A stretch of 27,804 bases of DNA from Verrucomicrobiota bacterium (GTDB taxonomy: Bacteria > Verrucomicrobiota > Verrucomicrobiia > Verrucomicrobiales > DEV007). Positions within the stretch are counted from its first letter, which is position 1. Every line of letters starts with the position of its first letter. Below the pieces are notes generated by a model. It worked only from the letters and a program-made list of their open reading frames with translations. It ran no database searches and had not been told where the DNA came from. Where the stretch lies: the NCBI GenBank assembly GCA_045046875.1, contig JASFYY010000145.1:1-27804 (forward strand). The letters are read 5' to 3'. Positions 1 to 27,241 of this stretch are shown here, piece after piece. A program made the translations under genes and the position numbers.

Positions 1-3000
1 GAGATGCCTGCAAAAATTTCATCGATCAGAATGTCACCGGAGGTGTTGTGAATCACCACATCATTCGCATCATCATCAGTGAGACTACGCAGACTGCCAA
101 TCGTGATCTGCCCTCCCGCATCCACCGTGATCGAACCATCTGCGGTATCCACCAACTGCAGATCAATCGCATCAAACTCATTCAGATCGATCGCACCATT
201 ATTGTTCGAGTGCGCCTCCAGGCTGTTCAGTCGGATCTCAATCGGGCGAAGCCCTCCAATCGATCCAAAGGCATTGATAATAGCATGATCAGCCACCAAA
301 TCGATACCGCTGTTATCCGGAGCAACAAAACCATCCGGCGCATCCTGTGGATTCACCTCATTGATACTACCCAAATCGGCGGTGAGGGTCACATCATTAA
401 AATTACCACCAGCATCTATCCGGTCGATTAAAATATCACCGGCAGTCGCGCGAAGGTTGATATCGAAAGTATTCGTCTGATCAATATCGTTAATTGATTC
501 CACATAATCAGCGACGATCGTTCCTCCTGCCGTGAGATCAATTGATCCGGAAGTGGACACCAGGCGCTGCACATTCACCGCGTCATCTTCCACGATAGTC
601 ATGTTGCCGATAGTGAAATTTTCAGCAATGAGAGTCGCCACATTGGTGATCAAATCAAGCGCCCCGTAGGAAGTGGCTGTAAACAGCGCTCCATGAATCT
701 TACCTCCATTGACTGGCAAAAGAGTGGTAACCGGCTGTCCTGCAGTGCGTAGGGTGCCATAAGCGGTGAGTGTAACATCATCTGCACCGCCAGCACCTGC
801 TCTCACCAAATCCGCTTGAATACTTCCTCCTTTAGTGATCACTCCTGCGGCAAACTCCCCTGAGGTAATATCAATGTCCCCGACATTGGTTGTGATGCTC
901 CGTAACAAAACACTATCGCTTTCAGTAATCGTCAAATCGCCCGCCACTGTCGAGTCAGCGGTGATACCATCGACGGTTGTATCCATCACAATGTCCCCCG
1001 TCGCCAGAGCAGTCAGCTCCCGACCAAATATTTTCTGGAACGTATCGCCATTAATATCATTGCTGAGTATCGATCCTCCGGTGGAGGTAAGAAAAATGTC
1101 ACGGTTGGGTGCACGCACCGAGTCATGGGTGATGGTTCCTCCCGCGGTCACCGTGATATCACCAAGGAAAGTTTCCAGCTCAACCAGACCGATCGCGTCG
1201 GTTTCATCAATGCGAATACCTACCGCGGAATTCGCCTCGGCCGGATTACCTGCTGTGAAAGTTTTTGCGGAAACATTATTGACCGTCGTTCTCAGATCAA
1301 TCCCCAGATCGAAAGTATCAACAAACACCGGATAGCCCCGTGCATTCACAATAAGATTATTCGCCGTGATTCTCCCTGTCGTCGACGAATCGGAAAGCAC
1401 CGTGCCACCGGATGGCAACGAGCCCAAAGTAAAACCACCCGCATCAATCGTCACATCCCCCGTATTGCCGGCATCAATCACATCGAGTAAAATTGCTCCA
1501 CCAAATAGATCACGGGTACGCAGCACAATCGTATTGGCAGCGGCGTCAGTCTGAGAACGCACCAAACGTGCATTCATGCTGCCCTCGGTATCCACTTGAA
1601 TCGCCCCGTCATTGGTCAAAATTCGATTAATCAGCAAAGGGCTCGCCTGGCCGTTAACATTATTGATGGCCACATCCCCCTTGCCCACCGTGTTCAGCGC
1701 CCGGATGTCCAGAGAATTGACCGCTGTATCCAATGTCACACCACCCAAAGCCGTCACCACCAAAGCATCACCTACCACGTTGGCCTCTCCTGGATTTGGC
1801 ACCACACGAGTCAGGGCACCCCCTTGCGCATCAAGCGTCACATCAAACAGACTCGGCAGAGTCCCTCCGATCACCTTATCCACCACGATGGCTCCGCCAG
1901 CAGTCACATCAACCGTTCCTGCATCAGTCTCCAACAGGGTCAGCGTCAAGCCATCCAATTCATCAATCGTCAAATCAGCCGCTCCCCCCAAAGTTCCATT
2001 GATGATACGACCCGAAATGATATCATCCACCGCTGTCCTCAGAACACTCGACAAGGCCGCCTCAAAATTCAACTTGCTAGAACTCAACCGCGCCGGAGCA
2101 TTCACCGTGACGCCTCCGCCCAGCGCCTCGAGGGTAATACGATCGTCCGCGGTCACGTTACCGGAAATACTCATCGCGCCTCCGGCGGCCCCACTCTTCA
2201 AAATCACATTGGAATTCAAACCCGTCGCTTGCACCGAACCCACTGCACCCACATTGAGATCACCTGTATTGTCTGCAGCTCCCGTTGTCGAAGCCCCGCT
2301 TCCGGCAATCAGCCTGATCAATCCGTTATCAGGAGTAGAGCTTAACAGAGTGTTCACACTAATGTCCCGAAATGCGGTCGCAAAGATAGACGGCGCGACC
2401 ACCGAGCTGCTTCCATTGGCATTATTAAAATGAATCCCTCCGTCACCAGCTCCCTCGTAAGCATGAAGCTCGAAAAAGTTAGTCGAGGTGAGCGCACTTG
2501 TTCCTGGAACAGCATCCTGCCCCAGAATGTTAATCTGCGCCCCTTTCAATATTAATGATGTATCAAAATCATAGTTTAGAATCGATACTACTCCACTATT
2601 GAGCGTTTCAGCCTCATCACGACCAATGATAATCGCTTTAGCCTGATTAGTAATCGTATTCAACACGGACTGGGTCACATTCAAAGTATTCGCTTGGGGC
2701 ACCACATCAGCGACGCGAATATCATAATCATCCGTGACGTTGCGAATGTAAACATCGCCAGACGTATCGATGATCCCACCACCTGGTATTGGAGGAATGG
2801 TATAGGCGACCTGAACATCCCGATAAGCTGTAACGTAGTAGGTATAAGAAGAGTAAATCGTTATTTGCTCCCAGTAGTAATAAGTCCAAAACCAGACGGG
2901 AACCGTCCTCTGCTCCCATATCTGATAACTGTAATTGACCGTCACTGGCTGCAAATAGGATTCCACTTCCGGGCGCCATTCAGTGCGGCCCGCCACATCC

Positions 3001-6000
3001 AGAGTCACCTCGTCAGCTTCCAAAATAACATCGCGCCCGCCACCTGCCACTAACCGTCCCAGAACAATCTTCTGTCCAGGTGCCACCGCTAGGCGAATCG
3101 CGCCACTGATTGTGCTCAAACCATCAATATCCCGGATCTTGGTGATTTTGATATCGCGGTCGGAAATTATGTTTATCCCCTGCGCCAAAGTCGCCAGCGA
3201 GGTGGTGGTTTTTGCCGCCAACCAAGTGGCATTGATCTTAACCGGATCAGTGTCGAAGCCGATAGTATCACGAACAGCAATCGCAACTTCTCCGTTAGCT
3301 CCCAACGCTTCAATCACTCCGGTTGCAATGGATGAAACATTAAAAAGAGATCCGGTAGGCAAGTTGATATCGATATAACCACTTCCGTTACCATTCCATG
3401 AGCTTGGATCGTAGGAGCCGTCAAAAACAGCCGTATCTGAGCTGTAAATCCCTACGGTACCCTCCGGGCTTTGACTCAGAGGCGCTGGACCGATGAACAA
3501 ACTGGAATCACCGAGCGGATCAATGTTCTGAATGTTAAGCTGGAGATTGCTATTATTTCGCATCACCAAACGCTCCGTCACTGAAAAACTTCGTTTGAGA
3601 TTGAGAGTCAAACCTTCAGCTTCAACACTGCTGCGCATTTCAATCGTTCCAGCCGTAACGGTGGAGCCTATGCCGAGATCAAGCCACTCGGTCGCAAGGT
3701 CCCCCCACACCACGGTCGCATTTCCAGCATCGAGATCAACACGGTTGATTCCGCTCATCACCGCCTGCTCCCGACCATTATTAATACCGTTAACCGAATA
3801 GCTAATCCTTTCAGGAAAGGTTTGTTTGATTAATACCCACCCATCATTTGATAAATCATTAATGTTGATATGCCCAATGTTCCGCGGATCCATCTGGCCG
3901 AGCAAAGTTGATGCACCCGGATTGGTGTCGGCAAAATATCGTTTGGTCGGATTTCCCAGAGTCACCGCATAAAAATCAGCTCCAGCACCGCCTTCCAAAT
4001 TCAAGGTTTTGTCAGGTGCAAAAAAGAAAGTATTAAAACGATCATCACCTGATCCACCAATCCACGAATCTATACTGTTGCTACCAGAAGCATCCGGCGC
4101 AAAAAAGACCGTATTCAATCCAGTCTTGGCACTTTGCACCAAGCGCCCTAGATCAAAAGTCAGATCACTCGTAACTCCACTGAAATCCGCGGTATTTCCC
4201 AGACCTGTTACAATCAGTCGATCACGACCAAAACCATTCTCGAAATAATAAGTGTCTCCACCGCCGCCGCCATCCAACACATCCGAGCGTTGACCTGAAT
4301 AAATATCATCAGCCGCCGTGCCACCGATAATGGTCGTATTTGCCTGACCCGCTCTTAATATCGATGAACGATTCACCGACCCAAACAAAGTCGCGGTGCC
4401 CTCACCTCCGGTCAATCTGTTTTTTCCACCTCCGGAATTCCCCTTCCCTGCGTAAAGTGTAGAATTGCCGCTACCTCCATTCAGATCAACCAGCGCCCTG
4501 GTAAGTGCCGATGCGTCAATGATCGACTCACCCGAACCAAGCGAACCTCTGACCAAACTGATACCCGTAAAGCTCTGTGTGTAAGTTACGCCATTGAGAA
4601 TTGCGGTGACCGTGATGTTTTCCGTTGATCCGGAAACTCCGTCACTGGTCAAGGTATAAACTTCATTCACTGCCCGGGTATCATTAAAAATACGCAGAGC
4701 AGCTCTTGAACCTGTATTTAAATCAAGCGTACTACCCGAAACTGTAGCCAATTGAATGCCAGGCTTTTCCGCGAAGAAAGTCACCTGGAAAAGATCCATG
4801 GCAAAAGTCTTCTCCAAGATACGCTTGGTAATCGGACCTACAAATGGAACCGGAATCGTAAGGTCGACATAAAAAGTCAATCCAATCCGACCGGTCAAAG
4901 TGACATCGAACAGATTGCCCATTTTCAAATCCGCCCCCGGCAGATTTTTCAAATAATCAATCTGACTGTTACGCAACTTCCCATAACCCGGAGTTCCAGG
5001 ATCACCAAAGCTCGGAGGAAAGGGGTAGGCTTCCGTATCAACAGGCTGGAACGAAGAAACTGCATTCGCCTTGTTTTTATCGACCGTCACATCGTTCCAA
5101 TTAAAATCTACCTGCAGCTCGAAAAAGGCCTCGATGCCCGCCTCGATCAGACCAAGACTTAAAGCGACCCCCACGTTGAACCGGGCCAGTATGCCGAAAG
5201 CTGGCGAAGGCTGGCCATCTAGGTTAAGGGTGCTCCAATAAAAACCTTCGGTATCCCAGCCGAACTTCAGATTGATATTGACCGAAATCGAAAATCCAAC
5301 CGTGGCAATCAGGGGGGGGAATGCAGGTAGCGGAAAGCTTTTAGTAACAGCCACACCAACCTCAACCCGTGGCAGCTCGAGGAAAGTCAAATTAGCTTCC
5401 TGCCCCATTAAAATCTTAACGACATTCTCCTGCTTGGCAAAATCCAATCTGAATCCGCCGCCCGTGATGCCAAAAATAGGTGATTTTTTCGCTTTTGCTG
5501 AATCGTTATTCAGGGTCAGGGCCTCGTTCGACTTCTTTTTTACGTAAGCTTTGAGTTTTCCGTCATTTTCATTTTTTGCAAAACCGTCGTTCCTGAATTT
5601 CTCAAATCGCTTGCTAAATTTATTTGGAGTCGTTGCCTTTTCATTCAACGAATCTTTCATTCTCTTCAGTGCCGACCGGTCATCAGTCTCTCCATCAAGA
5701 ACAAACCTTATACCTCTGCCAACTTCGTCATCTTCTCGATTCTGGCGAGCTTTCTCTCGAGCGGTATCTCTCTCGTTCTTATATTTTTCAATATTATTTC
5801 GCTCCTTGGTCAAACGGCTATCCTTCCCAGCTGTCGTTTTGATTTTATTCCATATACTGCCACCAATACCCATGCGAACGCGGGGCTTCGCCCATGAGGG
5901 TTTGGGATCAGCACTGCTACCCACACCGATTCCCCGAACCATATCGTCCAGACGCACAATGGTAGAAGCAAAAGAAGTGAAGCCACTGCCAAGGAAGTCG

Positions 6001-9000
6001 CCTAACACAAAGGGGCTCGCCATCCACTCAGTGCCTGGCAAGGGCTCCAGCAGAAAATCGATAAGCGGGCGGATGGGTTTGATACCATCCGAAAATTTCA
6101 GCAAACTCTCAAAAATCGTGCCCTGCAAAAACCCTTCAACATCAACTTGAATGTTGTAAAAATCAAAGGCTGCACCGTCAATCAATTGACGATTGTAACG
6201 GAAAACCTGTGCTGAGAGTTCAAGTTGATCGTCTGTTGCATTACTAGTCCCATTACTCTGGTCGGCCAATACCACGTTGTAAGCAGCCATCGACGCCACC
6301 GCCAGACTTGTCACTCCGTCAGGTGCCAATACTCCCAAGTAATTCAACTGACTGGCACCAATTCCATAACGAATCTGCAAAGTAAACTCCGTCTGGATAT
6401 CAGGAATCCCTTGACCTCCTCCAAAAGAAGTCCCCGGTTTACCGCCCTCGATAAAAAGATGCAGATCCAGATCGCCATCTGTTTCAAAACTAAGCACCCC
6501 GAATTGGAAACTGCCAATCTGGCTTTGACCTGCCACCGGCAAAGCCGGATCAAGACCCAGAGTATTTCGACCCTGCATATCCTGAATCGTTGTGCGATTC
6601 AAATTAGTTCCGCCCGATCCCTGGTTAAGAAAAAAGTCAAAAGTCCCGTAAAAACCGGAAGCACTCAAAAAATCAGTCCCCAGCGAATACGGTCCCGGAG
6701 TGTCCCCCGCGTCCGCCACCTGTACCTGTAATTGATTCAAAGTGCTGCTTCGGGTGGACTGTTCGAATATCTGAACTCCAGCGGTATTGATATCTCCATC
6801 AAGCACCGCTTCGATATCAACTGACATCAGCGGGGTATCAACCCCATCCGTTGGATCATCCGCCGGATTGTAAAGATAAAACCCTTCCTGCAAGTCCACC
6901 CCGAAACCAAGATGCAAAGTAAAGGCCCGGCGCAAATTAATACCGCCTGTTGTCGGCGTATTAGTGACCGTCTGACCACTGATGGTTTGAGATACGGTAG
7001 CGGTATCAATGACCAACCCGGTTCCCGTCTGCGAGAGGTCAATGCGGTTAATATTGATTTCCGGCAAATCACTGAAGGTTTTAACCAGGTCCAGCGAAAA
7101 TTGCAAACTAACCGCGCTGCCAGGCACCACTTCAAATTCCTCATTCGCCGGGGTCAGGTCATAATTGCTCGCCGCATTGGGATCCCAAATCGTTGCCACT
7201 TCAGCTGCATCCAGCGTCTCGATTACGATTTCAGACTTAGTCGTCAAATATCCCTCACCGCCGGGCCCAAGGATCGCATACAAGGAATCAATAATCGCAT
7301 TGATCGGCTTGAGCTTGTTATTACGAAGCTCATCGCGAACCCGGTTGGTAAAATCACTGCGCCAGGTCTCAATGAAAACCGTTGAACTCGGCAAGTCGGT
7401 TCCCAACAGCGGAATATAGTTTCCCAGCGCCTGATCAATCGCAAACTGAAGATTAAACAATGCCAGGTCAAGAGCTTCTCCCATGATGAAGGGATCCCGG
7501 AGAATGTTCAACACGTCGACCGGTGGAATATTGCGACCCAGCGGCGGCAACTCGTCCCACGGCATGGTCGGATCGGTAAAGAAAACCGCGGGTGCCGGCA
7601 CCCCTGGTGTATTTGCCGGAACGGTCACATCAAAAAAGCGATCAAGTCCGGTACGAACACCTGTACCGTCATCGTAATTCAACACCCGAATATTGACCGG
7701 ATCAAAATCTGGCAGTGTCGCCACAAAAGCCGAATCCGCTTTTTGCGCGTCGGATAACTGGGAGGTATCCTTGGTGATCAAAATCTCATTGCCATTTTCA
7801 TCGGTAATGACAATAATCATCGGCAATAAGGCCTGCCCCTGACCATTGGGGTTCACGATGGCCCAGGAATTAAAACCTCCGGATCCATCTGCGTTCGAAT
7901 AAACCCGCTCCAAACTATTACTAAAATTAACGCTCACCCCGGCCGACAGCGCCGGCACGTTGTTATCCTGAATAAAACGAAATCCCCCATTGTCACGGCC
8001 TTCAGCTACCGCCACCCTCAGTTCGTCAAACTCAGCCCCGGTATCCGCAAACCCCACCCGAACCAGCTCCCACTTTTCGGAGGCATTGCCCACCGTTTTC
8101 ACCCGATAGATCCCATTCTGAAATTCAATGTTCGAGCTGCTATTCTGATCTTTCACCAGAATTAAATCATTCACCGCAATATCCGGCACGCCATCGATAC
8201 CCACCACTTGCCGTCCGTTCGCGAGGGTCGACAGAATCGAGTTCAGCGATTGGTTGGTTTTGGATTGCAAGCCCGGCTTACCATCAATGGTAGCAAAATC
8301 AGCAATCAATTCCCCCGTAGTAGCAACACGAACCAGATAAGGTAAAATCTGGTCGCCCTGTAAATTAATTTCAAAAGTTGCAGGATCAATAAAACGGGCA
8401 AAACGAACCGCATCCACTCCCAGATTCACAGGATCCTGCACCTGGATAAAATCCCTGCCAGCATAGGTACTGCCACCTGTCACCGATACAAATAGATCGT
8501 CCAGTTCTGCTGCAGTATTAGCAGCACTCACTCGCCTTAAGCGCCAGTTGGCATTGACGCCAGCACCACTGCCGTCACGTATAACAGAATAAACTCCATT
8601 GTAAGCGACATTGCCCTGATGGTTCACCAGTACGAGGTCGCCAATACTCACAGAAACTCCATCGATGACCAACTGCCCGCTTACATCTGCATCCAAACGA
8701 CCATTGGCAAGGGTCGGGTTGGTAAAAGTGCCTCCAAGATCCGCTGTCGTCGCCACGTCCACCGTCAAACCCGCAGGCTGCACATAACCTGCCTGCAGCA
8801 TTGCCTGATTATAAATCCCCGGAGTTCCATTGGCATCATCCACCGCCACTTCCCCATGTTTATTGACCGCCACCATGCCGTTCGACAAACGAAAACGTGC
8901 ATTTCCAACTGGCAGATCACCATTAAAATTTTCGCCAGCCAGGTTAACCAGAGTCGTGATCTGTGAAGTCTGGTAAAGCACCGCCCTCGGCTCCCTACTG

Positions 9001-12000
9001 ATTCCTCCGCGCACCACTTGAATCCCCAAATCAAGATCCAGATCCGCCAAAATACTCAGCTCCACCTCCATCGGGTTCGCCCCCGTGCTCGCTAGCGCGG
9101 AAAGTCCCGCCAGATAGTCATCCACAATCTCCGGATCACTAGAGCGATTGCGTAACTGGGCAAGGTCAACAAACAACGGCAAACTCGTCGCAAAGGCCTG
9201 CACAAAAGGCAGACTCAAATCAATGCTCGCTGACTCCAGAGCACCTGCATTATAAGTAGTGGAAAGTGATAAGCCGATATCAGCCAGATTCAGCTGAAAA
9301 ATCCCCGCCATCACATTTTTCAACTCCTGTAAGCTAGCGGGCTGAGCACTTTCAAGCCGCAGGATATACTGCTCTAACTCATATCCCAGATCAAACACAT
9401 CCACCAAACCGGACTTCACAAACAGCAACTTTGACTGAAAGGCATTCACCCCCGCCGCCGCCCCGTCTGGATCAATACGCATCTGATCCGAAATGTATTC
9501 CGCAGTTCGCAACAAGCCTTCAATGATATCCTCAAAACCCACCGTGTAGAGCATTTCCATGCCCAAGGTGTTATTATAAACCAAGTCAGGTGCTGGAAGG
9601 TTGGCAAAATCTGAAATCTTGCTGGCAGAAGGTCCCGCCATTCCAGTCAAGTCATGCTTCAATGTGATGGTAGCTCCTGGTCCGAAAGCCAGCCCGACAA
9701 AAGCTTCGCCCGTATCGGGATCCACAGGGAAACTCAGGTTACGTAACTCCAAGGTAGCGAAAGTCGTCGGATCCACCACCTGGGTGGATATCGAAGTCAG
9801 GTTGTTCGTGGCAGCGGCTGTATTCAGATCCACCAAGGTGAGGCGTCCGCCAAAACTGGTCGTCTCTTTGGCGACCAGATCCAAACGGCCGTCCCCTGCT
9901 TCGAAAGCGACAAAACCAAAGTGCCCTTTGGCACTCACCTGCTGATTCGTCACCGATGCAGTTCCCGTCAAAGCAATATTATTCAAGAAAACCTCACCAC
10001 CACGAGCCCCGATTCTTTGCTCTTCAGTTAGAAAGCCCAAAGTCGTGGTCGCGGTATTGGTCGGGATCGAATCGTCCGGCACAAATCGGAAAGTCCGCAC
10101 AATGGGATTACTATTCAGTGGATCCGAATTATCGAGTGAAAAAATTGCCACTCGCGAACCGCCTCCAAAGGTGCCCGCACGTAGAAAATCACTCAAATCA
10201 TAAGTCGCCCCGATGATAACCGGAGTCGCCGCCAATGCCGCATTGATATCACTGATCAAGTTCGCCATCGTCGGTGTTCCCACTCCCCCCGGTACCGTCA
10301 CTGTCACATAATCACTGCCATTGATCGAAATTTCGAACACCGCAGGGTTGCTCAACAAAAAGGGATTTGGTCCTTCAAGTGGTCGGGAAATGATCGACAA
10401 GCGAACATCCGTGATCGCCGAAGTTGCCGTTATTTCTTTAACGTAGAGTTCGGTGGAAACTGCATTCGGCTGTGGCTCGAAATAATTAGCCACTACCTCG
10501 AACGTCCAGGCTTCCGTAACATAAGATCCGTCATCCGGGAACACATTGGCATTCAGCCTGAATCCCACTTTCCCGCTATCATCGAAAGCTTCGATTTTGC
10601 CTTCGAACTCGGTGCTCAACTCCGCACTCTGCTGAATAGCAAAATTCAAGTCATCCAACAAATCCTGCATCGACGCATTACCCACCGTCTCACTGGCGTT
10701 GAGCACAAAGTCTCCGCTGTTACCATCAAAAAGATCAAAGTGAAAAAGCGCACGCGTCCCTGCATTCAAGCTAAATGACGGCAAATTGGTAGCCGTTACC
10801 GTATCAATCACTGTCGTTAGATTCGTCGAGCTGGCAACAAATCCCAAGTTGGTAATCGCTTCGTTAGGAGTCACAATTGAACTGGAGATCCTTTCCGGAA
10901 CCAGCACCTGGAACATTCTCGTATTCGTGATTGCCGGGTCTGCGGTGAACACCAATACCGAATAACGGCTGTCAGCACCAGCCTGAGCTGTCACACTGAC
11001 CTTGCCAATCAATCCCGCATCTGCATTGATCGCGGCCTGCACATCCGCGGCAAAATCAGAAGCGTCAGTATTGTCCGTCGTATCAATCGCATCGACTCGC
11101 AAATCGTGAATCACCCCGTCATCCAGAATCACCCGGATCAACCCGTCCGCTTGGATCTGCCCATCCCAGTCAGCAACCCCTACAGGAACCTCGAGCGTCA
11201 ACACTTCAGCCACAGAGGTATCAGGAACTAATCCCACTTCAAAACCAAAAGATGAATTGGTGGTGCGATCCACATCAACGCTGCTGTCGGTTGCCAGTTG
11301 GGAAATTTCCCCATATTTAGCCTCAAGCAACACATCCACCGCAGCCACCCCTGTCAGGCTGGTCGGGGTATAATCAAATTCGATCGGAAAAGTAATGCTC
11401 AAGCGAGAAGTATCAAAAACAGGCTGAGCAGCCCCTGCCAGTGGTCCCGCCGCTATGACCGCTGCAAACTCTTGCAAGCTGGTGAAGTCGGGCGAAATGA
11501 AACGCTTACTCAAAGCGAAAGAAGCTGATAGCCCATTGGTCGCCGGAGTGGTTCCAAAAGCCAAGTGCCCCAATCCTCCACTGATAGCCTGAATGGCAAT
11601 TTGGGAAATTTTTCCGGTAGCCTCACCAGGATTACGAGCGAAAAATTGCAAAGCCCCTGAATTGTCACCTCGCACATCAATCCCAGTGCCAGCAGCCTGA
11701 TCCAAGAGCGGGGTCAACACCCCAGCTGAAAATGTTGTATTTTTCAGACCATAACGAATATCATCAGCCAAATCCGACATCGCCACATTAGACGTGCCGG
11801 CAAGTCCAGTGGTGCGATTACCACTGAGGTAAGTTCGATAAGAGGTGGCCGTTCCATCAACAGTGATACTGAAGTCAATGTAATTGGAGGCCTGCAGGCT
11901 CGGTGTAAGTTTTAACTGGCTCAGACCCGTGCCAGCAATGCTCAGTCCGTAAATTTCTCCCGTCCCATAGACTCGAATTCCCTGCCCGCCACCGGCGAGA

Positions 12001-14201
12001 TCAAGCACATCCACCACCACCCCTTCCCCGGTCGCCCCATTGAACAATCCCTCTGCCTCCAGCACATCCCGCATCCGGGCAACCAGAGCGCCCACCCCAG
12101 AGTAACTTTGAATCGGGATCGTCACTGTCACCGCAGCAGCTCCGTTCACAGCAATATCGAAAGTCCTTACCGTGCTGAAATCAGTCACATCAATCGCCGA
12201 ACTTGAATCAAAAACTATTCCCCCTAGTTGGTATTCTGTCCCAGCAGCTACACCGTTGCCAAAATTCACACTGTCATTGGCCAGCACCACTTCCCCATAA
12301 GCATTGATCCCGATATCCAAAACCCCGTCACCAGCTGCCTGGAATCCGATAAAAGCAAACTGCCCGGGATCAGCGGCAAAAAACTCAATTCTAGGAGAGT
12401 CTGTATCCGTCACCCGGGCCTGCACCCCCGTCGCACCCCCCACCGATGCCGCAATCAGAGCCGTATTAATATCATCAACAATATCCTGCAGACTCGTGCG
12501 GGTCAGATCCTCGTTCACAAGTATCGTCGTCCATGTCCCACCGTTGACTGAAGTAGAAAAAGCCGTTCCCCCGGTATAATCGAGAGGATCCCTGACAAAA
12601 CCACCGCTCCCGTCATCACGCCAGGTGGAAGGCGCATTCACTGAAGTCAGCACCTGCTCAGCACTCTGCAATTGAGCCAGAAAAACCTGCCTAAAAGCTT
12701 CGCCAAAAGCAAAGGCATCCCCTTCATCGAGATTCAGGAAAGGCAACTGGTCGCGAAACAGCTCACTGTTATCCAAAGCCTCCGCCCAGGCCACAGTGGA
12801 GTCCACCATGTTAAGCAAATCTTTCGGAGCAATCCGCGAAAAAGCCGAAAGAGTCGCGTCCGTATTCACCAAGGGTGCCCGGTCATCAAATAGATTGTCG
12901 TCACTGAACTGCAACTGTCCGGTCACCCCATCCAAACCGCCGATGAAGGTATCGCCGGCCGGATTGGCCACCTCCACCTGAAAAATGGCGTCCACCGTAT
13001 TGGTCTGGAAACCACCACCGATCACACTCGCCTGACCCGTAGGGGTCTGTAAATCGTAAGCTATGGTCCAATCCGGAGTCCCTGCCCCCGAAATCAATTT
13101 GAACTCCGCGAGGTCAAATTTCGAATCCGCCGTGATCAGACTCTCGCCCCCGGAAAAATCAATCAGAGTCGTCACATCGAGCAGAAACTGCGCACTCGGC
13201 CCTGCTCCACCAGCGCCATCCGATGCGTCCACCCAAGCTCCCGCTCCCGTGCCGCCTTGTTGACCTCCGAGAATGCCAATCTGAATCCCAAAGTCATCCA
13301 ACCCGCCATAAGTTGTCGTCGTATGCTGGGCGATTGAGGTGGCATCGTAATTACCAAAATCCACCCAGTAGTTGCCGTCCTTACCCAATTCGGTCAGTTT
13401 TTCCGCGGTAGTAGGCGTGGCGGGGGGCCCTCCTACCAGGGTCGTCGGGTCAAGAATCGATAAATCCGCCCCGATGGAGAAGGACACCGAACGGTTGTTG
13501 GTAATGTTGATCGAAGTTCCGTCCTCAAGTCTCAAATTAAATTCTTCCGCCGCTTCACCCAGTTTCAAATTGGCTACTGACACCGTATCCGGCAAACCGA
13601 TCACCACATCCAATTGAAGGTTAAAAGCAGTCGAATTATCCGTTATCGTACCGATCATCCCAGAACCGAACAACGAACTATCCAGAGCCGTCTGCAAGCG
13701 CAACGCCAGTCCCGCTGAATCCGGACGATCATCCATCGTCACATCAGTGTCGCCATAGTTGGACAAATAAGCATTTATGTCGAGCTGCTCACCCACTTCG
13801 TCAGCCCAATTAAAATAACGCCCCACGTCATCACCCAGCACGTCTCTAAGGGTCTGGTCCAGCAAAGGGATACCCGAGCTGTCCAAAGTATTATTCAACG
13901 AACCATCGCTATTGAGAGCCTCGCCCAACTGCCCCAAATTAGTCAGTGTAGCGATAAACTGAGTCTTGATCGCATCCTGGGCCCCGCGAGCATCAGCCAC
14001 ATCATTAGCGCTATCCGCTTCGCTTACTGAAGCATCATACAGTGCTGCATTGAGCAGTAACCTCGGCTCCAAGGGCTCCACCGTAAAACCACCACTACCA
14101 CGTCGCCCGCCACTCTGTCGACCACGGAAACCACCATTGGATTTACCTCCCATTAAGAAGCGCTTCCATCCATCACGGGTACGATTAGCTTTACGAGACA
14201 T
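1..14201 (-). CDS. Giant LEPR-XLL leader-containing secreted/surface protein (>=4733 aa, 3' end beyond the window)
   Basis: ATG at 14199-14201 (minus) directly follows an in-frame TAG. It reads MSRKANRTRDGWKRFLMGGKSNGGFRGRQSGGRRGSGGFTVEPLEPRLLLNAALYD. The same frame is still open at base 3 (...DVVIHNTSGDILIDEIFAGI). Every segment I translated by hand is open, and the ORF track lists no minus-strand ORF ending in this frame, as expected if there is no internal stop. Composition is rich in G/D/T/V/N/S. An alternative start is M17 at 14153. Confidence 0.95.
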   Translation of the reverse strand, partial: MSRKANRTRDGWKRFLMGGKSNGGFRGRQSGGRRGSGGFTVEPLEPRLLLNAALYDASVSEADSANDVADARGAQDAIKTQFIATLTNLGQLGEALNSDGSLNNTLDSSGIPLLDQTLRDVLGDDVGRYFNWADEVGEQLDINAYLSNYGDTDVTMDDRPDSAGLALRLQTALDSSLFGSGMIGTITDNSTAFNLQLDVVIGLPDTVSVANLKLGEAAEEFNLRLEDGTSINITNNRSVSFSIGADLSILDPTTLVGGPPATPTTAEKLTELGKDGNYWVDFGNYDATSIAQHTTTTYGGLDDFGIQIGILGGQQGGTGAGAWVDASDGAGGAGPSAQFLLDVTTLIDFSGGESLITADSKFDLAEFKLISGAGTPDWTIAYDLQTPTGQASVIGGGFQTNTVDAIFQVEVANPAGDTFIGGLDGVTGQLQFSDDNLFDDRAPLVNTDATLSAFSRIAPKDLLNMVDSTVAWAEALDNSELFRDQLPFLNLDEGDAFAFGEAFRQVFLAQLQSAEQVLTSVNAPSTWRDDGSGGFVRDPLDYTGGTAFSTSVNGGTWTTILVNEDLTRTSLQDIVDDINTALIAASVGGATGVQARVTDTDSPRIEFFAADPGQFAFIGFQAAGDGVLDIGINAYGEVVLANDSVNFGNGVAAGTEYQLGGIVFDSSSAIDVTDFSTVRTFDIAVNGAAAVTVTIPIQSYSGVGALVARMRDVLEAEGLFNGATGEGVVVDVLDLAGGGQGIRVYGTGEIYGLSIAGTGLSQLKLTPSLQASNYIDFSITVDGTATSYRTYLSGNRTTGLAGTSNVAMSDLADDIRYGLKNTTFSAGVLTPLLDQAAGTGIDVRGDNSGALQFFARNPGEATGKISQIAIQAISGGLGHLAFGTTPATNGLSASFALSKRFISPDFTSLQEFAAVIAAGPLAGAAQPVFDTSRLSITFPIEFDYTPTSLTGVAAVDVLLEAKYGEISQLATDSSVDVDRTTNSSFGFEVGLVPDTSVAEVLTLEVPVGVADWDGQIQADGLIRVILDDGVIHDLRVDAIDTTDNTDASDFAADVQAAINADAGLIGKVSVTAQAGADSRYSVLVFTADPAITNTRMFQVLVPERISSSIVTPNEAITNLGFVASSTNLTTVIDTVTATNLPSFSLNAGTRALFHFDLFDGNSGDFVLNASETVGNASMQDLLDDLNFAIQQSAELSTEFEGKIEAFDDSGKVGFRLNANVFPDDGSYVTEAWTFEVVANYFEPQPNAVSTELYVKEITATSAITDVRLSIISRPLEGPNPFLLSNPAVFEISINGSDYVTVTVPGGVGTPTMANLISDINAALAATPVIIGATYDLSDFLRAGTFGGGSRVAIFSLDNSDPLNSNPIVRTFRFVPDDSIPTNTATTTLGFLTEEQRIGARGGEVFLNNIALTGTASVTNQQVSAKGHFGFVAFEAGDGRLDLVAKETTSFGGRLTLVDLNTAAATNNLTSISTQVVDPTTFATLELRNLSFPVDPDTGEAFVGLAFGPGATITLKHDLTGMAGPSASKISDFANLPAPDLVYNNTLGMEMLYTVGFEDIIEGLLRTAEYISDQMRIDPDGAAAGVNAFQSKLLFVKSGLVDVFDLGYELEQYILRLESAQPASLQELKNVMAGIFQLNLADIGLSLSTTYNAGALESASIDLSLPFVQAFATSLPLFVDLAQLRNRSSDPEIVDDYLAGLSALASTGANPMEVELSILADLDLDLGIQVVRGGISREPRAVLYQTSQITTLVNLAGENFNGDLPVGNARFRLSNGMVAVNKHGEVAVDDANGTPGIYNQAMLQAGYVQPAGLTVDVATTADLGGTFTNPTLANGRLDADVSGQLVIDGVSVSIGDLVLVNHQGNVAYNGVYSVIRDGSGAGVNANWRLRRVSAANTAAELDDLFVSVTGGSTYAGRDFIQVQDPVNLGVDAVRFARFIDPATFEINLQGDQILPYLVRVATTGELIADFATIDGKPGLQSKTNQSLNSILSTLANGRQVVGIDGVPDIAVNDLILVKDQNSSSNIEFQNGIYRVKTVGNASEKWELVRVGFADTGAEFDELRVAVAEGRDNGGFRFIQDNNVPALSAGVSVNFSNSLERVYSNADGSGGFNSWAIVNPNGQGQALLPMIIVITDENGNEILITKDTSQLSDAQKADSAFVATLPDFDPVNIRVLNYDDGTGVRTGLDRFFDVTVPANTPGVPAPAVFFTDPTMPWDELPPLGRNIPPVDVLNILRDPFIMGEALDLALFNLQFAIDQALGNYIPLLGTDLPSSTVFIETWRSDFTNRVRDELRNNKLKPINAIIDSLYAILGPGGEGYLTTKSEIVIETLDAAEVATIWDPNAASNYDLTPANEEFEVVPGSAVSLQFSLDLVKTFSDLPEININRIDLSQTGTGLVIDTATVSQTISGQTVTNTPTTGGINLRRAFTLHLGFGVDLQEGFYLYNPADDPTDGVDTPLMSVDIEAVLDGDINTAGVQIFEQSTRSSTLNQLQVQVADAGDTPGPYSLGTDFLSASGFYGTFDFFLNQGSGGTNLNRTTIQDMQGRNTLGLDPALPVAGQSQIGSFQFGVLSFETDGDLDLHLFIEGGKPGTSFGGGQGIPDIQTEFTLQIRYGIGASQLNYLGVLAPDGVTSLAVASMAAYNVVLADQSNGTSNATDDQLELSAQVFRYNRQLIDGAAFDFYNIQVDVEGFLQGTIFESLLKFSDGIKPIRPLIDFLLEPLPGTEWMASPFVLGDFLGSGFTSFASTIVRLDDMVRGIGVGSSADPKPSWAKPRVRMGIGGSIWNKIKTTAGKDSRLTKERNNIEKYKNERDTAREKARQNREDDEVGRGIRFVLDGETDDRSALKRMKDSLNEKATTPNKFSKRFEKFRNDGFAKNENDGKLKAYVKKKSNEALTLNNDSAKAKKSPIFGITGGGFRLDFAKQENVVKILMGQEANLTFLELPRVEVGVAVTKSFPLPAFPPLIATVGFSISVNINLKFGWDTEGFYWSTLNLDGQPSPAFGILARFNVGVALSLGLIEAGIEAFFELQVDFNWNDVTVDKNKANAVSSFQPVDTEAYPFPPSFGDPGTPGYGKLRNSQIDYLKNLPGADLKMGNLFDVTLTGRIGLTFYVDLTIPVPFVGPITKRILEKTFAMDLFQVTFFAEKPGIQLATVSGSTLDLNTGSRAALRIFNDTRAVNEVYTLTSDGVSGSTENITVTAILNGVTYTQSFTGISLVRGSLGSGESIIDASALTRALVDLNGGSGNSTLYAGKGNSGGGKNRLTGGEGTATLFGSVNRSSILRAGQANTTIIGGTAADDIYSGQRSDVLDGGGGGDTYYFENGFGRDRLIVTGLGNTADFSGVTSDLTFDLGRLVQSAKTGLNTVFFAPDASGSNSIDSWIGGSGDDRFNTFFFAPDKTLNLEGGAGADFYAVTLGNPTKRYFADTNPGASTLLGQMDPRNIGHININDLSNDGWVLIKQTFPERISYSVNGINNGREQAVMSGINRVDLDAGNATVVWGDLATEWLDLGIGSTVTAGTIEMRSSVEAEGLTLNLKRSFSVTERLVMRNNSNLQLNIQNIDPLGDSSLFIGPAPLSQSPEGTVGIYSSDTAVFDGSYDPSSWNGNGSGYIDINLPTGSLFNVSSIATGVIEALGANGEVAIAVRDTIGFDTDPVKINATWLAAKTTTSLATLAQGINIISDRDIKITKIRDIDGLSTISGAIRLAVAPGQKIVLGRLVAGGGRDVILEADEVTLDVAGRTEWRPEVESYLQPVTVNYSYQIWEQRTVPVWFWTYYYWEQITIYSSYTYYVTAYRDVQVAYTIPPIPGGGIIDTSGDVYIRNVTDDYDIRVADVVPQANTLNVTQSVLNTITNQAKAIIIGRDEAETLNSGVVSILNYDFDTSLILKGAQINILGQDAVPGTSALTSTNFFELHAYEGAGDGGIHFNNANGSSSVVAPSIFATAFRDISVNTLLSSTPDNGLIRLIAGSGASTTGAADNTGDLNVGAVGSVQATGLNSNVILKSGAAGGAMSISGNVTADDRITLEALGGGVTVNAPARLSSSKLNFEAALSSVLRTAVDDIISGRIINGTLGGAADLTIDELDGLTLTLLETDAGTVDVTAGGAIVVDKVIGGTLPSLFDVTLDAQGGALTRVVPNPGEANVVGDALVVTALGGVTLDTAVNSLDIRALNTVGKGDVAINNVNGQASPLLINRILTNDGAIQVDTEGSMNARLVRSQTDAAANTIVLRTRDLFGGAILLDVIDAGNTGDVTIDAGGFTLGSLPSGGTVLSDSSTTGRITANNLIVNARGYPVFVDTFDLGIDLRTTVNNVSAKTFTAGNPAEANSAVGIRIDETDAIGLVELETFLGDITVTAGGTITHDSVRAPNRDIFLTSTGGSILSNDINGDTFQKIFGRELTALATGDIVMDTTVDGITADSTVAGDLTITESDSVLLRSITTNVGDIDITSGEFAAGVITKGGSIQADLVRAGAGGADDVTLTAYGTLRTAGQPVTTLLPVNGGKIHGALFTATSYGALDLITNVATLIAENFTIGNMTIVEDDAVNVQRLVSTSGSIDLTAGGTIVADYVESINDIDQTNTFDINLRATAGDILIDRIDAGGNFNDVTLTADLGSINEVNPQDAPDGFVAPDNSGIDLVADHAIINAFGSIGGLRPIEIRLNSLEAHSNNNGAIDLNEFDAIDLQLVDTADGSITVDAGGQITIGSLRSLTDDDANDVVIHNTSGDILIDEIFAGI
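3..1300 (-). repeat. Beta-helix-type repeats (~105-135 aa), at least four copies, filamentous-haemagglutinin-like
   Basis: Copies read LRTTVNNVSA..IRIDETDAIGLVELETFLGDITVTAG, MDTTVDGITA..GDLTITESDSVLLRSITTNVGDIDITSG, LITNVATLIA..GNMTIVEDDAVNVQRLVSTSGSIDLTAGG and IEIRLNSLEA..GAIDLNEFDAIDLQLVDTADGSITVDAGG. Looser beta-rich sequence extends to ~3700. Confidence 0.8.
3969..4484 (-). repeat. Degenerate RTX-like (GGxGxD) nonapeptide cluster, probable Ca2+-binding beta-roll
   Basis: LNGGSGNSTL, LTGGEGTATL, IGGTAADDI, LDGGGGGDTYYFENGFGRDRL, IGGSGDDRF and LEGGAGADFY. Confidence 0.8.
7923..8762 (-). repeat. Two tandem ~120-135 aa repeats of the VxVATT...IDGV...LVKDQ...NGIY...W-x-L-x-R type
   Basis: Copy 1 (8762-8400): VDVATTADL..IDGVSVSIGDLVLVNHQGNVAYNGVYSV..WRLRRVSAANTAAELDDLFVSVTGGSTYAGRDFIQ. 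Copy 2 (8333-7923): VRVATTGEL..IDGVPDIAVNDLILVKDQ..QNGIYRV..WELVRVGFADTGAEFDELRVAVAEGRDNGGFRFIQ. Confidence 0.85.
10140..12570 (-). repeat. About six degenerate 70-90 aa protein repeats, consensus F-x-I-x-V-N/D-G ... D-L-x-x-D-I-N-x-A-L/I (flagellin hook IN-like)
   Basis: Copies read FSTSVNGG..SLQDIVDDINTAL (~12570-12375), FDIAVNGA..GALVARMRDVL (~12165-11960), FSITVDGT..MSDLADDIRYGL (~11880-11640), IRVILDDG..ASDFAADVQAAINA (~11160-10940), FHFDLFDG..MQDLLDDLNFAI (~10760-10555) and FEISINGS..MANLISDINAAL (~10345-10140). Confidence 0.75.
14052..14081 (-). other. LEPR-XLL (planctomycete extracellular-type) N-terminal motif, VEPLEPRLLL
   Basis: Direct translation FTVEPLEPRLLLNA, preceded by an R/G-rich segment with no hydrophobic h-region. 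Confidence 0.92.
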
Positions 14202-14226
14202 CTATGGTGGTAGAAAAATTAGAGTT

Positions 14227-14261
14227 ACAGACAAACAGACAAATCAGAAATCAGAAATCAG
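14227..14261. repeat. Short tandem repeats (ACAGACAA)x2 + (AAATCAG)x3 just upstream of the giant gene
   Basis: Read directly: acagacaa acagacaa, overlapping aaatcag aaatcag aaatcag at 14241-14261. Confidence 0.85.
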
Positions 14262-14420
14262 GGGAATGTACCATTAAACTGCACTAATGCATCCATTTTT
14301 TCCCAATTCACTACGGGAAGTCAAAGGAATTTCTAACTTTATTCGATAACGCCACGAAGCCCATTAGACAGAGCCTTTCATATACGCATTCAAGTAGTTG
14401 TATTAGAAAGGGTTACAAAC

Positions 14421-16415
14421 CTACATCCTTCTCGATTCTGGCACAAAACTGAGATGCTCATCGACCCAGGTATCCATCTTGAGCACCGATTTACGTTGAC
14501 TGGCCCCCAAGCGATCTGACGCCTTTTGAGCATGACGTATACAGGACAGGGCAAGTCTTTGATAACCAACAGATTGAGCCATGGAAGCCAACTTAAGACG
14601 TTTTTTCATAAATTTCGGCAAAAATCGCGCTATCAGCTCGTCATCCACACTGAGATATGCCCTTACACTGCCCGGATCTCCCTGACGTGCCGTCCGCCCC
14701 ATCAGTTGCCGATCAATACGCCCGGAGAAATTTGGATCGACCAGGATCACATGCATGCCCCCTATTTCCAGCTCCGGACCAGCTATCTTCACATCGGTTC
14801 CACGTCCCGCCATGTTCGTGGCAATGGTCACCGCCCCCTTTTTTCCAGCTCGCGCAACAACATCGGCTTCATCCTTGTGGCGAACGGCATTGAGCACATC
14901 ACAGACCACACCCCGGTCCTTCAACATCTCCGCCAGGATTTCACTTTCTTCCACGGTCCGAGTGCCTACCAGCACCGGCCGCCCCTGCGCGTGAAGCTCT
15001 TCGATGTCATGGATGATTGCTTCCCGCTTTGAGTCACTGCTACCAAATACCGCCATCGGTTCAACATGGCGCAAACAAGGTCGGTGCGTGGGAATTTTCA
15101 CCACCGCCAATCGATACAAAGTCCAAAGCTCGCCCGCAGCTTCCCAAGCTGTTCCTGACACCCCGGAGATATGCCGGAACATTCTAAAAAAACGCTGGAA
15201 ACTCATGCTTGCCAAAGTCTCCGTAGGATCTGTCGACGTGATTCCTTCTTTCGCTTCAATCGCCTGGTGCAGGCCCTGCTTCCAGGTTCGCCCCGGCATC
15301 AGACGACCGGTGAATTCATCAATGATCTCCACCTTTCCTTCTAAAATCGTGTAGTGGGAGTCCCTATCAAAAAACTCCTCCGCCACCAGCGCTTGTCGAA
15401 CCAACTCCTCACGCCTGTCGGGACTCCTCCAAATGGGAGACAACCGATGCCGCTGACGGTCAATCTGGTATTCTCCCGATGTTCGAAACACAATTTCATT
15501 ACGCGCATGATCAATGGAAAAATCACGCCCCGCCTTTAGGGACATGGCAATCTCCCGTGCGACACGACAACATTCAGCAAAATCATCCGCCTGGTGTTTT
15601 CTACTGATTATCAAAGGAGTTACCGCCTCGTCAATGAGCACACTGTCCGCTTCATCAACTATCACCGTATGAATCCCGCGCATCACCTGCTCACTGCCCC
15701 GCTCTCCCATCTGGCTACTGAACAAGTGTCTCACCAACTGCTGGGACGGAGCCTGGTCCTCACCGACCTTCAAGCGATCTCTCAAGTAGTCAGCCAATAG
15801 CTCCTGACTGGTGGTATAGACCACCCCGCATGCGTAAGCATCACGACGCCCATCAGGCTCCATCTTACCCGTTACAAACCCAACTTCCACGCCGGCAAAT
15901 CGATAAAAATCCCGCAAACTTTCCGCATCCCGTTCAGCCAGATAATCATTCACCGTGATGACATGCACGGGATAACCGGACCATGCGAGGATCAGGCTTC
16001 CCAGCGCAATCGTTAACGTCTTCCCCTCACCGGTTGCCATCTCAGCAAACAAACCTTGCTGAATAGCCAACGCTCCCATGACCTGCTCTTCATAGGGAGT
16101 CATGCCAAGCACTCGTTCGGAGATAACCACCAGACAAGCCATCGCCTCCCTGGCTCCCCCCACATCCAGGGATCCGCGTCTCGCGTCTCCATGAAGACGA
16201 ATCACCTCCTCTCTGAGCTCCTTTTCGTCGAGCCCCTTGAAACGTTGCGCGGAAATTTTGAGCACCTTGCGCGCTTCACGCCGCAGACGCCGCTTAACAC
16301 CTGCACGCCGTCTCCAGCGCCCAATGGTCGACAATACAAGCCTATCCATCCCCTCTGGAATGGATACCGTCTTGCGTGCCGCATTGCGATAGTAGCGCTG
16401 ACTAGGTGTGATCAT
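14421..16415 (-). CDS. SecA-like DEAD-motor ATPase, short accessory paralogue (664 aa) lacking most of the C-terminal scaffold/wing region
   Basis: SecA motifs present: MATGEGKT (Walker A), VHVITVNDYLAERD, IVDEADSVLIDEAVTPLIIS, GLHQAIEAKEG, GRPVLVGT, IATNMAGRGTD and RIDRQLMGRTARQGDPG. Only about 80 aa follow the last motif, and there is no C-terminal Cys/His zinc site. Confidence 0.93.
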   Translation of the reverse strand: MITPSQRYYRNAARKTVSIPEGMDRLVLSTIGRWRRRAGVKRRLRREARKVLKISAQRFKGLDEKELREEVIRLHGDARRGSLDVGGAREAMACLVVISERVLGMTPYEEQVMGALAIQQGLFAEMATGEGKTLTIALGSLILAWSGYPVHVITVNDYLAERDAESLRDFYRFAGVEVGFVTGKMEPDGRRDAYACGVVYTTSQELLADYLRDRLKVGEDQAPSQQLVRHLFSSQMGERGSEQVMRGIHTVIVDEADSVLIDEAVTPLIISRKHQADDFAECCRVAREIAMSLKAGRDFSIDHARNEIVFRTSGEYQIDRQRHRLSPIWRSPDRREELVRQALVAEEFFDRDSHYTILEGKVEIIDEFTGRLMPGRTWKQGLHQAIEAKEGITSTDPTETLASMSFQRFFRMFRHISGVSGTAWEAAGELWTLYRLAVVKIPTHRPCLRHVEPMAVFGSSDSKREAIIHDIEELHAQGRPVLVGTRTVEESEILAEMLKDRGVVCDVLNAVRHKDEADVVARAGKKGAVTIATNMAGRGTDVKIAGPELEIGGMHVILVDPNFSGRIDRQLMGRTARQGDPGSVRAYLSVDDELIARFLPKFMKKRLKLASMAQSVGYQRLALSCIRHAQKASDRLGASQRKSVLKMDTWVDEHLSFVPESRRM

Positions 16416-16416
16416 T

Positions 16417-18588: not shown

Positions 18589-18629
18589 TCTGAATTCTAA
18601 CTTCTAACTCCTGACGCCTGACGCCTGAC
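18588..18629. repeat. Degenerate heptamer tandem array, 6 units
   Basis: TTCTGAA TTCTAAC TTCTAAC TCCTGAC GCCTGAC GCCTGAC fills most of the 49-bp gap between the two HlyD-type genes. Confidence 0.85.
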
Positions 18630-18637
18630 ATCTTCCC

Positions 18638-20539: not shown

Positions 20540-20705
20540 TTGTTCAGATCAATAACAATAAGGGTAAATCCAGACAGTGAGTCCATTAAGCTATTCATTC
20601 AAGTCTATTCCATTTTCAATCTTCAATTCGTTTTCATCCATGTTTATGAATTTTATAAATATTTTATGAGATTTTGTAATCCACCCCGTGTTTATTGAAT
20701 CCATT
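20540..20705. promoter_or_regulatory. AT-rich divergent intergenic region, likely holding the promoters for the export operon and the hydrolase gene
   Basis: The flanking genes diverge and the region is visibly AT-rich. Imperfect palindrome TTTATGAA-T-TTTATAAA at 20643-20659; TTTATGA recurs at 20643 and 20663. Confidence 0.5.
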
Positions 20706-22172: not shown

Positions 22173-22194
22173 GGCAAAATTGCATCGTGGCATC

Positions 22195-22239
22195 GATTGC
22201 TTGGCGCGCCATAGCCCTTGGGGCGAAGGCGGGGCAATC
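22195..22239. repeat. Nested GC-rich hairpin between convergent genes (REP-like element and/or bidirectional terminator)
   Basis: GATTGC-ttggcg-CGCC-ata-GCCC-ttg-GGGC-gaa-GGCG-gg-GCAATC gives three nested complementary stems. No U-tract follows. Confidence 0.6.
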
Positions 22240-22260
22240 CGTGGATCCCCGCGAACCATC

Positions 22261-23229: not shown

Positions 23230-23258
23230 GGCAAAAAGATAAACTTCATTCCGGCCCG

Positions 23259-23738
23259 ATGGCAAACTTTAACTCAAACGTCAAATCTGCGATCATCGCC
23301 GCGATCCGCGCCGCCTTGAAAAAAGACTTCGAAAGCTTCCAACAAGCCTCTCAACAGACCCGTCAAAGCGGTAATGACGAACAAAGTCAACCGGACGGAA
23401 AATACGACACCCAATCCACCGAGGCCAACTACCTTGCCGACGGCCAAGCTCGACAAGCCGAAGAAATCGCCCAGGCTGCCGCCTGTTTCGAGACCATGGA
23501 AGCCCGTGATTTCAAAACCTATCACCCCATCGACCTCGGTGCCCTGGTCGAAATGGAAATCAATCAACAATCCCAATGGTTTTTCCTCGCCCCCGCATCC
23601 GGAGGTCTGGAGATCCAAGTAAAAGATCAAGAGATCACCCTCATCACCCCCGATTCCCCACTCGGCAAACAAATCATCGGCCAATACCAAGGCGAGCAGA
23701 TTTCCTCCCCCGTCGCAAAAATCCTCTCCATCCTATAA
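23259..23738 (+). CDS. GreA/GreB-family transcription elongation factor-like protein
   Basis: N-terminal helical hairpin containing GKYDTQSTEANYLA, and a Gre C-terminal domain pattern (IDLGALV..ITLITPDSPLGKQIIG). Confidence 0.8.
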   Translation: MANFNSNVKSAIIAAIRAALKKDFESFQQASQQTRQSGNDEQSQPDGKYDTQSTEANYLADGQARQAEEIAQAAACFETMEARDFKTYHPIDLGALVEMEINQQSQWFFLAPASGGLEIQVKDQEITLITPDSPLGKQIIGQYQGEQISSPVAKILSIL

Positions 23739-24522: not shown

Positions 24523-24534
24523 ACTTCTCATCTT

Positions 24535-25308: not shown

Positions 25309-25322
25309 ATCCCAGCTCCCCT

Positions 25323-27202: not shown

Positions 27203-27241
27203 AATACAGGGAAAAAACATCATTATTTCAATAGAAGCAAC

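Follow-up and report, generated by a model that had tools for sequence, protein, structure and literature searches.

The stretch analysed here, referred to as the window, is the 27,804-nucleotide contig JASFYY010000145.1 of a Verrucomicrobiota bacterium (assembly GCA_045046875.1; Verrucomicrobiales, DEV007), of which about half is taken up by one very large gene on the minus strand. This is an intact gene that the assembly has split, encoding a cysteine-free, acidic protein of the LEPR-XLL family that is built almost entirely of beta structure and repeats, and that probably serves as the cargo of an export module whose genes surround it. Giant surface proteins rank with the largest gene products of bacteria, and judged from its gene content the present locus appears to exemplify, in clean form, a variation on type I secretion. 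A preliminary description, made from the letters of the window, had recognised the giant frame and the order of its parts; to this are added the curated family to which the leader can be assigned, the position of the stop codon on another contig, and a set of neighbouring genes that make up a dedicated export module.

The giant gene and its missing end

The giant open reading frame (ORF) occupies window 3..14201 on the minus strand, with an ATG start and 4733 codons that are stop-free to the window edge. The preliminary description had likewise seen a single open minus-strand frame covering half of the window and running past base 1, and had named in-frame stops as a finding that would refute it; the complete translation contains zero. 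The chance of 4733 stop-free codons at 51% GC is vanishingly small (log10 P = -94). In comparison with a relative carrying 79% amino-acid identity (L054), the differences over 2254 aligned codons are distributed as 432, 252 and 1138 at codon positions 1, 2 and 3, and the changed codons comprise 855 synonymous versus 470 non-synonymous cases. Given this dominance of position 3 and the synonymous excess, the frame is coding and under constraint, and the giant ORF is thus a real gene under purifying selection. Colinear full-length relatives (45-53% identity; 5,220-5,734 amino acids) fall into 14 clusters from Verrucomicrobiales and Kiritimatiellaeota assemblies, and the window's own product is present in the protein database as a sequence of 4734 amino acids (P0002). 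Close relatives of the host bacterium occur in hydrothermal-vent metagenomes, and a metagenome scan for DNA orthologous to the giant locus returned a single locus. Six plus-strand ORFs inside the giant (157-273 amino acids), which had been taken for antisense shadows, gave no Pfam match (0/6), a result that fits that interpretation, short of proof.

Because the window is the entire contig (C145) of a 163-contig, 5.59-Mb genome, the gene is truncated by an assembly break, and the extension proposed in the preliminary description leads to its stop on another contig, C54. This carries the only one of 70 contig-end-open frames to resemble the last part of the giant, and its bases 1-2475 provide 824 further codons followed by a stop. 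When compared with a complete relative of 5480 amino acids, the window protein aligns colinearly to residues 13-4684 (48% identity) and the C54 fragment to residues 4702-5422 (E 1e-108), with the break falling within an array of ~134-145-amino-acid repeats. Contigs of close relatives (93-95% identical, from three public runs of two studies) cover window 19-3000 and extend beyond base 1 by 48 more letters and a further repeat copy, one of them being ~5.5 kb longer. The full giant comprises at least ~5,570 amino acids.

Leader and export module

The N-terminus carries the leader motif FTVEPLEPRLLLNA (14031..14087, minus strand, amino acids ~39-57), which is that of family NF012209, LEPR-XLL, with the model name LEPR-8K. 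The leader that had been noticed from the letters is thereby placed in a curated family: NF012209 matches residues 39-54 with 19.1 bits in hmmscan, above its cutoff of 17, and a six-frame scan of the genome gives the leader 26.1 bits (E 5.8e-5). Among the 2,615 ORFs of ≥300 amino acids in this genome, the hidden Markov model of the leader matches the giant alone. The residues E, L, E, R, L and L are invariant in 13/13 aligned leaders, and a basic, Gly/Arg-rich N-terminus precedes the motif. Between start and leader, this protein and its closest relative have a Gly/Arg-rich insertion of ~24 residues (window 13977-14201, amino acids 11-38) that is missing from the other 11 aligned leaders. With a motif that scores above the curated cutoff, is N-terminal and belongs to a very large protein, the giant joins the LEPR-XLL family as a new member whose mosaic body is distinctive. 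Membership in this family depends on the 24-residue leader alone, and the body of this giant is unrelated to those of the other leader-bearing giants examined. No paper describing the LEPR-XLL family was found in the literature searched, which did not include subscription journals.

Three genes lie upstream of the giant on the same strand. The short, “wingless” SecA paralogue (14421..16415, minus; 664 amino acids) has the DEAD motor, the preprotein cross-linking domain and NBD2, and lacks the wing/scaffold domain SecA_SW and SEC-C, both of which are present in the canonical 1071-amino-acid SecA that the genome encodes on contig C66. It is preceded by an M50-HlyD fusion (16417..18588, minus; 723 amino acids), which combines a weakly PqqD-like N-terminal part, an M50/S2P-type HExxH intramembrane protease and an HlyD-type adaptor. 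HExxH and NPLLRFDGYY are invariant in 18/18 relatives of this fusion, and the adaptor part matches MacA, MexJ and EmrA in a profile search of the PDB. The third gene encodes a GAF-HlyD protein (18638..20539, minus; 633 amino acids), a periplasmic adaptor according to its domain matches. On the other side of the giant, a TolC-like gene (C54 2527-4785; PF02321, 1.3e-25) starts 52 bases past the stop. Its product is long (752 amino acids), and as the OEP match spans amino acids 379-560 only, an N-terminal part of ~370 amino acids lies outside it. Short SecA and LEPR-XLL protein are each encoded once in the genome.

The same set of genes in the same order is known from the comparative genomics of Kamneva, Poudel and Ward (2015; PMC4452313), who described a conserved locus of a secondary SecA_DEAD protein with Peptidase_M50/HlyD and GAF/HlyD proteins, with or without OEP; the present locus has all of these, i.e. 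a second SecA_DEAD, adjacent M50/HlyD and GAF/HlyD, and OEP/TolC. A type-I-like secretion role was proposed there, with the SecA-like protein as ATPase. In that paper no substrate is named, the broader biological role is called “completely unknown”, and the words giant, leader and cargo are absent. What differs here is the connection of the locus with a leader-bearing giant, made through adjacency and co-occurrence. No paper was found that links the leader or the giants to the module locus, or that gives an export route for LEPR-XLL giants, in a literature search that did not cover subscription journals.

Of 20 Verrucomicrobiota loci fetched around short SecA genes, 17 preserve the three-gene module, and a leader-bearing giant ORF directly follows it in 7 of these 17; at BLASTP E ≤ 1e-4 these adjacent giants have the leader alone in common with the present protein. 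Where module genomes are without an adjacent giant, leader proteins are encoded elsewhere in 4 of the 5 tested, in frames of up to 20,466 amino acids. Co-occurrence was counted in 300 Verrucomicrobiota genomes besides this one, using a leader criterion (E ≤ 2e-3 in a frame of ≥849 amino acids) that was set after the data had been seen, and in 201 Planctomycetota genomes. In Verrucomicrobiota the leader is found in 22/24 genomes with a short SecA versus 0/276 without, and in Planctomycetota in 22/56 genomes with an M50-HlyD relative versus 0/145 without (20/24 where the relative belongs to the closest M50-HlyD subfamily), counts that overstate the statistical weight since related genomes are not independent. 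The 276 Verrucomicrobiota without a short SecA do give 11 leader matches, all with E ≥ 9.6e-4 and 9/11 in frames of <840 amino acids; none of 14 control genomes is above the leader cutoff. As the leader family is found only in module-bearing genomes in the samples of both phyla, we infer that the giant is most likely the cargo of the module.

Further observations concern the distribution of the leader and of the module genes. Other leader-bearing open frames of Verrucomicrobiota reach 20,466, 19,216, 19,033 and 18,984 amino acids (G035, G060, G044 and G180). Two planctomycete genomes (G303 and G301) have 22 and 7 leader matches, and the leader is not confined to giants, since most of these planctomycete proteins have only 300-2,000 amino acids. 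Among 32 Planctomycetota genomes with weaker M50-HlyD relatives (E 1e-152 to 1e-60), NF012209 has a match in only 2; the weaker-scoring M50-HlyD subfamilies may work with another leader. Short SecA paralogues of a more distant kind (~40% identity; L051, L052 and L053, found twice in G289 and once in G169) lack the two HlyD genes in their neighbourhood.

Across species genomes, relatives of the M50-HlyD fusion number at least 596 and are spread over Verrucomicrobiota, Planctomycetota, Desulfobacterota, Beta- and Gammaproteobacteria, Chloroflexota and Campylobacterota. Around the best 80 of these at least 596 loci, a short SecA lies directly downstream in 57 of the 64 with room for it, GAF-HlyD lies upstream in 62/63, and a TolC-like gene is present in 36/80. 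In the cultured gammaproteobacterium Vreelandella aquamarina QJJ-865 (NZ_CP085210.1; L121 15153-22127) the gene that comes after the module is a frame of 20,892 amino acids with the leader, the sole LEPR-XLL match of that genome, and the arrangement of module and leader protein also occurs in the cultured Pseudomaricurvus alkylphenolicus and Verrucomicrobia bacterium IMCC26134.

Neither an ABC (ATP-binding cassette) transporter domain nor a further HlyD/biotin-lipoyl adaptor was seen in the window or the first 12 kb of C54, to which this search was confined. Promoter and terminator scans of 13900-21000 gave counts at chance level (7 found versus 5.8 expected and 6 versus 7.5), and do not establish an operon structure. 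The predicted complex of M50-HlyD residues 1-140 with leader residues 1-75 scored 0.01, a value obtained without controls that speaks neither way. The flanks (window 20688-27803 and C54 4875-11737) look ordinary, with genes for a ceramidase-like protein (below cutoff), a xylose-isomerase-like TIM barrel, HAD, ThuA, pyridoxamine-phosphate oxidase, PQQ-type beta-propellers, FGE-sulfatase and glycerol-3-phosphate dehydrogenase.

The body of the giant protein

Over 5,557 residues the protein contains 0 Cys and is acidic, with 12.6% D+E versus 5.8% K+R; 0 Cys is also found in 9/11 orthologues. Pfam scans of the whole protein and of 31 overlapping segments of 300 amino acids gave no family above cutoff. 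Nevertheless, the order of parts set out in the preliminary description is largely borne out by profile searches and segment-wise folding, including the two virus-like repeats, the amphipathic beta region with a basic insert (its long strands at modest confidence) and the beta-helix with an aromatic segment, all of which reappear below; for the six repeats called IN-like and for the RTX part, the units and the fold hold, and the family labels are weaker.

The region following the leader (amino acids ~58-490; 12732..14030, minus) is conserved in orthologues and has no recognised domain, there being no Pfam match in its 300-amino-acid segments. Next come six units of ~120 amino acids (10116..12731, minus; amino acids 491-612, 627-748, 743-858, 976-1089, 1103-1228 and 1230-1362), which have in common a strand-helix-strand pattern and a helix of the form L-x-D-L-x-x-D-I-N-x-A-L, and of which no further copies were found. 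Their resemblance to Flagellin_IN is tentative, the region's Atlas lead to that family being weak (score 0.94, 142-148 shared features). Two further units (7968..8714, minus; amino acids 1830-1920 and 1992-2078) are 41% identical to each other, and their profile matches show homology to virion and tail-fibre proteins of phages: phrog_30390 matches over two stretches (5.9e-16), 8 phage families are matched at E ≤ 0.01, the others including head-decoration, virion-structural and tail-fibre families, and compact matches in BFVD cover 111-129 columns with a root-mean-square deviation (rmsd) of 3.1-4.2 and 27-34% identity.

The basic insert (5439..5903, minus; amino acids 2767-2921) is probably helical, by a prediction of low confidence. 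It stands out in an otherwise acidic protein, with 26 K+R per 100 residues at amino acids 2801-2900, and carries motifs that are conserved in the consensus of relatives. The following long-strand beta module (4752..5438, minus; amino acids ~2922-3150) has predicted strands of 12-22 residues at a predicted local distance difference test (pLDDT) of 45-67, and contains the two most conserved 50-amino-acid blocks measured in residues 2901-4100 (identity 0.70-0.79). Used as a query, residues 2740-3260, which take in the basic insert and the long-strand module, recur in 83 representative clusters, many of them giants with the region at a similar position. In smaller relatives of this query PF00353 is above cutoff in 8/21, and in those compared the RTX repeats start at or just past the long-strand module.

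In the giant itself, an RTX-type beta-roll (3612..4751, minus; amino acids ~3151-3530) follows, with GGxGxD-like motifs at residues 3293, 3311, 3382 and 3404. Its predicted fold resembles RTX blocks of CyaA (7rah_E: Z 16.6, rmsd 3.9, 230 aligned; 6sus_A: Z 14.1, rmsd 3.2, 208 aligned). It is succeeded by a right-handed beta-helix (2052..3611, minus; amino acids ~3531-4050), predicted with pLDDT mostly 75-93, which matches HxuA (4i84_B, Z 14.5) and FHA (1rwr_A, Z 13.6). The model of residues 2901-4100 has a mean pLDDT of 71.2, and Foldseek found 0 matches to it in the PDB at E ≤ 0.001, so that the clear RTX and beta-helix folds came only from a Foldseek-independent structure search. Inserted in the beta-helix is an aromatic beta-hairpin (2796..2987, minus; amino acids 3739-3802), predicted as two strands of 30 residues (pLDDT 60-71). 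Its sequence is hypervariable among relatives, at 15% identity versus 39-48% in the flanks; it is 78-85 amino acids long in 8 of 12 sequences, with 13-18 aromatic residues, and missing in the other 4. Present or absent and hypervariable among orthologues, the hairpin may be a specificity element.

The window ends within a C-terminal array of ~110-145-amino-acid repeats (3..2042, minus; amino acids 4054-4733), which continues on C54. Past this array the chain ends without repeats, in a short hydrophobic stretch and then a basic cluster (the last ~40 residues, on C54), which is kept in orthologues. Upstream of this tail most orthologues have an “RGEAP...W” motif that is missing in the present protein. 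The C-terminal 424 amino acids gave weak Atlas leads only (≤0.85; DUF5649 and haemagglutinin repeat), and all their matches to PDB sequences have E ≥ 0.28.

Function, export route and alternatives

That the giant is a secreted or surface protein, as had been proposed from the letters, is well supported by the agreement of the leader, the adjacent TolC- and HlyD-type genes, the acidic composition without cysteine, the RTX-type roll, the beta-helix of adhesin or two-partner secretion (TPS) type and the tail-fibre-like units. Of the narrower proposals, that of an adhesin or surface filament is the most plausible, and it is the resemblance of predicted folds that points to it. The third proposal, of a contact-dependent effector carrier, has no support: searches of the 4733 + 824 residues with Pfam, against PDB sequences and in the Atlas turned up no domain of a toxin or enzyme. 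The beta-helix is shared with TPS exoproteins (FHA and HxuA) and autotransporter passengers at the level of the fold only; membership in either group was rejected, because the Pfam scans of the 31 segments and the neighbouring genes show no TPS domain and no TpsB-type partner.

We propose that the unfolded giant chain would be recognised via its N-terminal leader, and that the wingless SecA ATPase would drive it N-terminus first into a duct formed by M50-HlyD, GAF-HlyD and the TolC-like protein, with no ABC transporter taking part. The M50 intramembrane metalloprotease would cut off the leader, and outside the cell the calcium-dependent folding of the RTX-type roll and the beta-helices would block back-sliding. 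The exported protein would form a long fibre at the surface or outside the cell, for which the tail-fibre-like units and the aromatic hairpin could provide binding, and which the C-terminal hydrophobic-plus-basic tail may hold to the cell. On balance we lean towards the view that leader, wingless SecA, M50-HlyD, GAF-HlyD and TolC-like channel together constitute an undescribed one-step, ABC-free route with an N-terminal signal across the Gram-negative envelope for the largest bacterial proteins, and that here it would have exactly one cargo, threaded N-terminus first, losing its leader to the protease and tethered at its C-terminus.

In type I secretion, HlyB-HlyD-TolC exports RTX proteins, and LapB-LapC-LapE serves LapA among the giant adhesins. 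The likeness to the present locus lies in the HlyD-type adaptors, the TolC-type channel, the acidic, cysteine-free repeat cargo with its RTX-type roll, and the large, fibre-like product. The locus differs in having a SecA-like ATPase and no ABC transporter in the region searched, in that the conserved signal is N-terminal and not C-terminal, and in the fusion of an intramembrane protease to an adaptor. An association of giant proteins with a SecA motor that lacks the wing/scaffold domain has also been reported in Omnitrophota, where giant proteins contain fused wingless SecA domains (bioRxiv 10.1101/2023.11.21.568195); there the SecA is inside the giant, whereas here it is a separate protein, and M50, HlyD and LEPR are absent from the main text of that preprint.

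A number of observations weigh against this interpretation or weaken parts of it. The module itself is known from sequence comparison and comparative genomics. Apart from the non-independence of the genomes counted above, 10 of the 17 Verrucomicrobiota module loci are without a giant within ~13 kb, two genomes with a short SecA (G281 and G169) have no leader match, and 34 of the 56 Planctomycetota genomes with M50-HlyD, mostly those with weaker-scoring subfamilies, are without the leader, whose model is only 24 positions long. The PqqD-like domain of M50-HlyD is weak (20.1 bits, below the cutoff of 23.4), and a profile of the 18 M50-HlyD proteins found no PqqD or RRE structure among PDB sequences. 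In the giant, Flagellin_IN (PF07196) matches only one of the six units, at 20.1 bits (E 7.5e-4) and below its cutoff of 22.7, and PF00353 reaches 19.8 bits on the RTX region, below its cutoff of 23. The predicted fold of amino acids 1781-2980 has a mean pLDDT of 45.5, is mostly unusable and does not suffice to describe the helical and beta regions at ~2080-2766. Finally, a reported loose end matches C54 in the expected repeat phase with agreement at 21/30 letters only, and as the number of repeat units between the two contigs is not fixed, extra units are possible.

Other explanations must be considered against the same evidence. It is improbable that the module exports or matures some other product, such as a small leader peptide resembling those of ribosomally synthesised and post-translationally modified peptides (RiPPs), while the giant uses Sec and LEPR-XLL is an odd signal peptide or the sorting tag of another machine. 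The protease part does resemble RiPP maturation proteases (daptide_HExxH at 1.3e-49, below cutoff; YydH/LiaK type; NHLP-type HlyD), and this explanation would be in keeping with the PqqD-like match, the 10 module loci without an adjacent giant and the canonical SecA of the genome. However, it does not account for a leader family confined to module-bearing genomes in both phylum samples, nor for unrelated cargo bodies beside the module that have the leader alone in common, and the hydrophobic run of the leader (3-4 residues by inspection) would be too short for the core of a Sec signal peptide. We regard it as similarly unlikely that the giant acts chiefly as a membrane-active toxin or a device for effector delivery, with the basic helices and the amphipathic hairpins before the RTX part entering a target membrane or the outer membrane like the pore regions of RTX toxins. 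The strong conservation within the basic insert and long-strand module, the place of that module immediately ahead of the RTX-type roll, which has its parallel in smaller RTX proteins, and weak Foldseek matches to long-hairpin pore-formers (probability ≤0.2) would agree with such a role; yet there is no significant structural or sequence match to a pore-former or toxin, the confidence of the predicted long strands is only modest, and most of the chain is adhesin-type repeat or solenoid.

A decaying pseudogene or an assembly artefact, to which the contig end cutting the gene inside a repeat array might point, has a negligible probability in view of the length of the stop-free frame, its position-3-dominated divergence with synonymous exceeding non-synonymous changes, the colinear full-length relatives, and the independent contigs of relatives that span the end and run on; it was rejected on the coding-type divergence of the frame. 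The reading of the giant as cargo of its neighbouring module is the best supported.

If this link holds, the secondary-SecA locus, the role of which has been open since 2015, and the export of LEPR-XLL giants would explain each other, and there would be a secretion system in which a SecA-type motor and an intramembrane protease replace the ABC transporter of type I secretion. The present locus is a simple case of the arrangement, with one machine, one cargo and a TolC-like gene directly behind the cargo, and the cultured carriers Vreelandella aquamarina, Pseudomaricurvus alkylphenolicus and IMCC26134 make the arrangement genetically testable.

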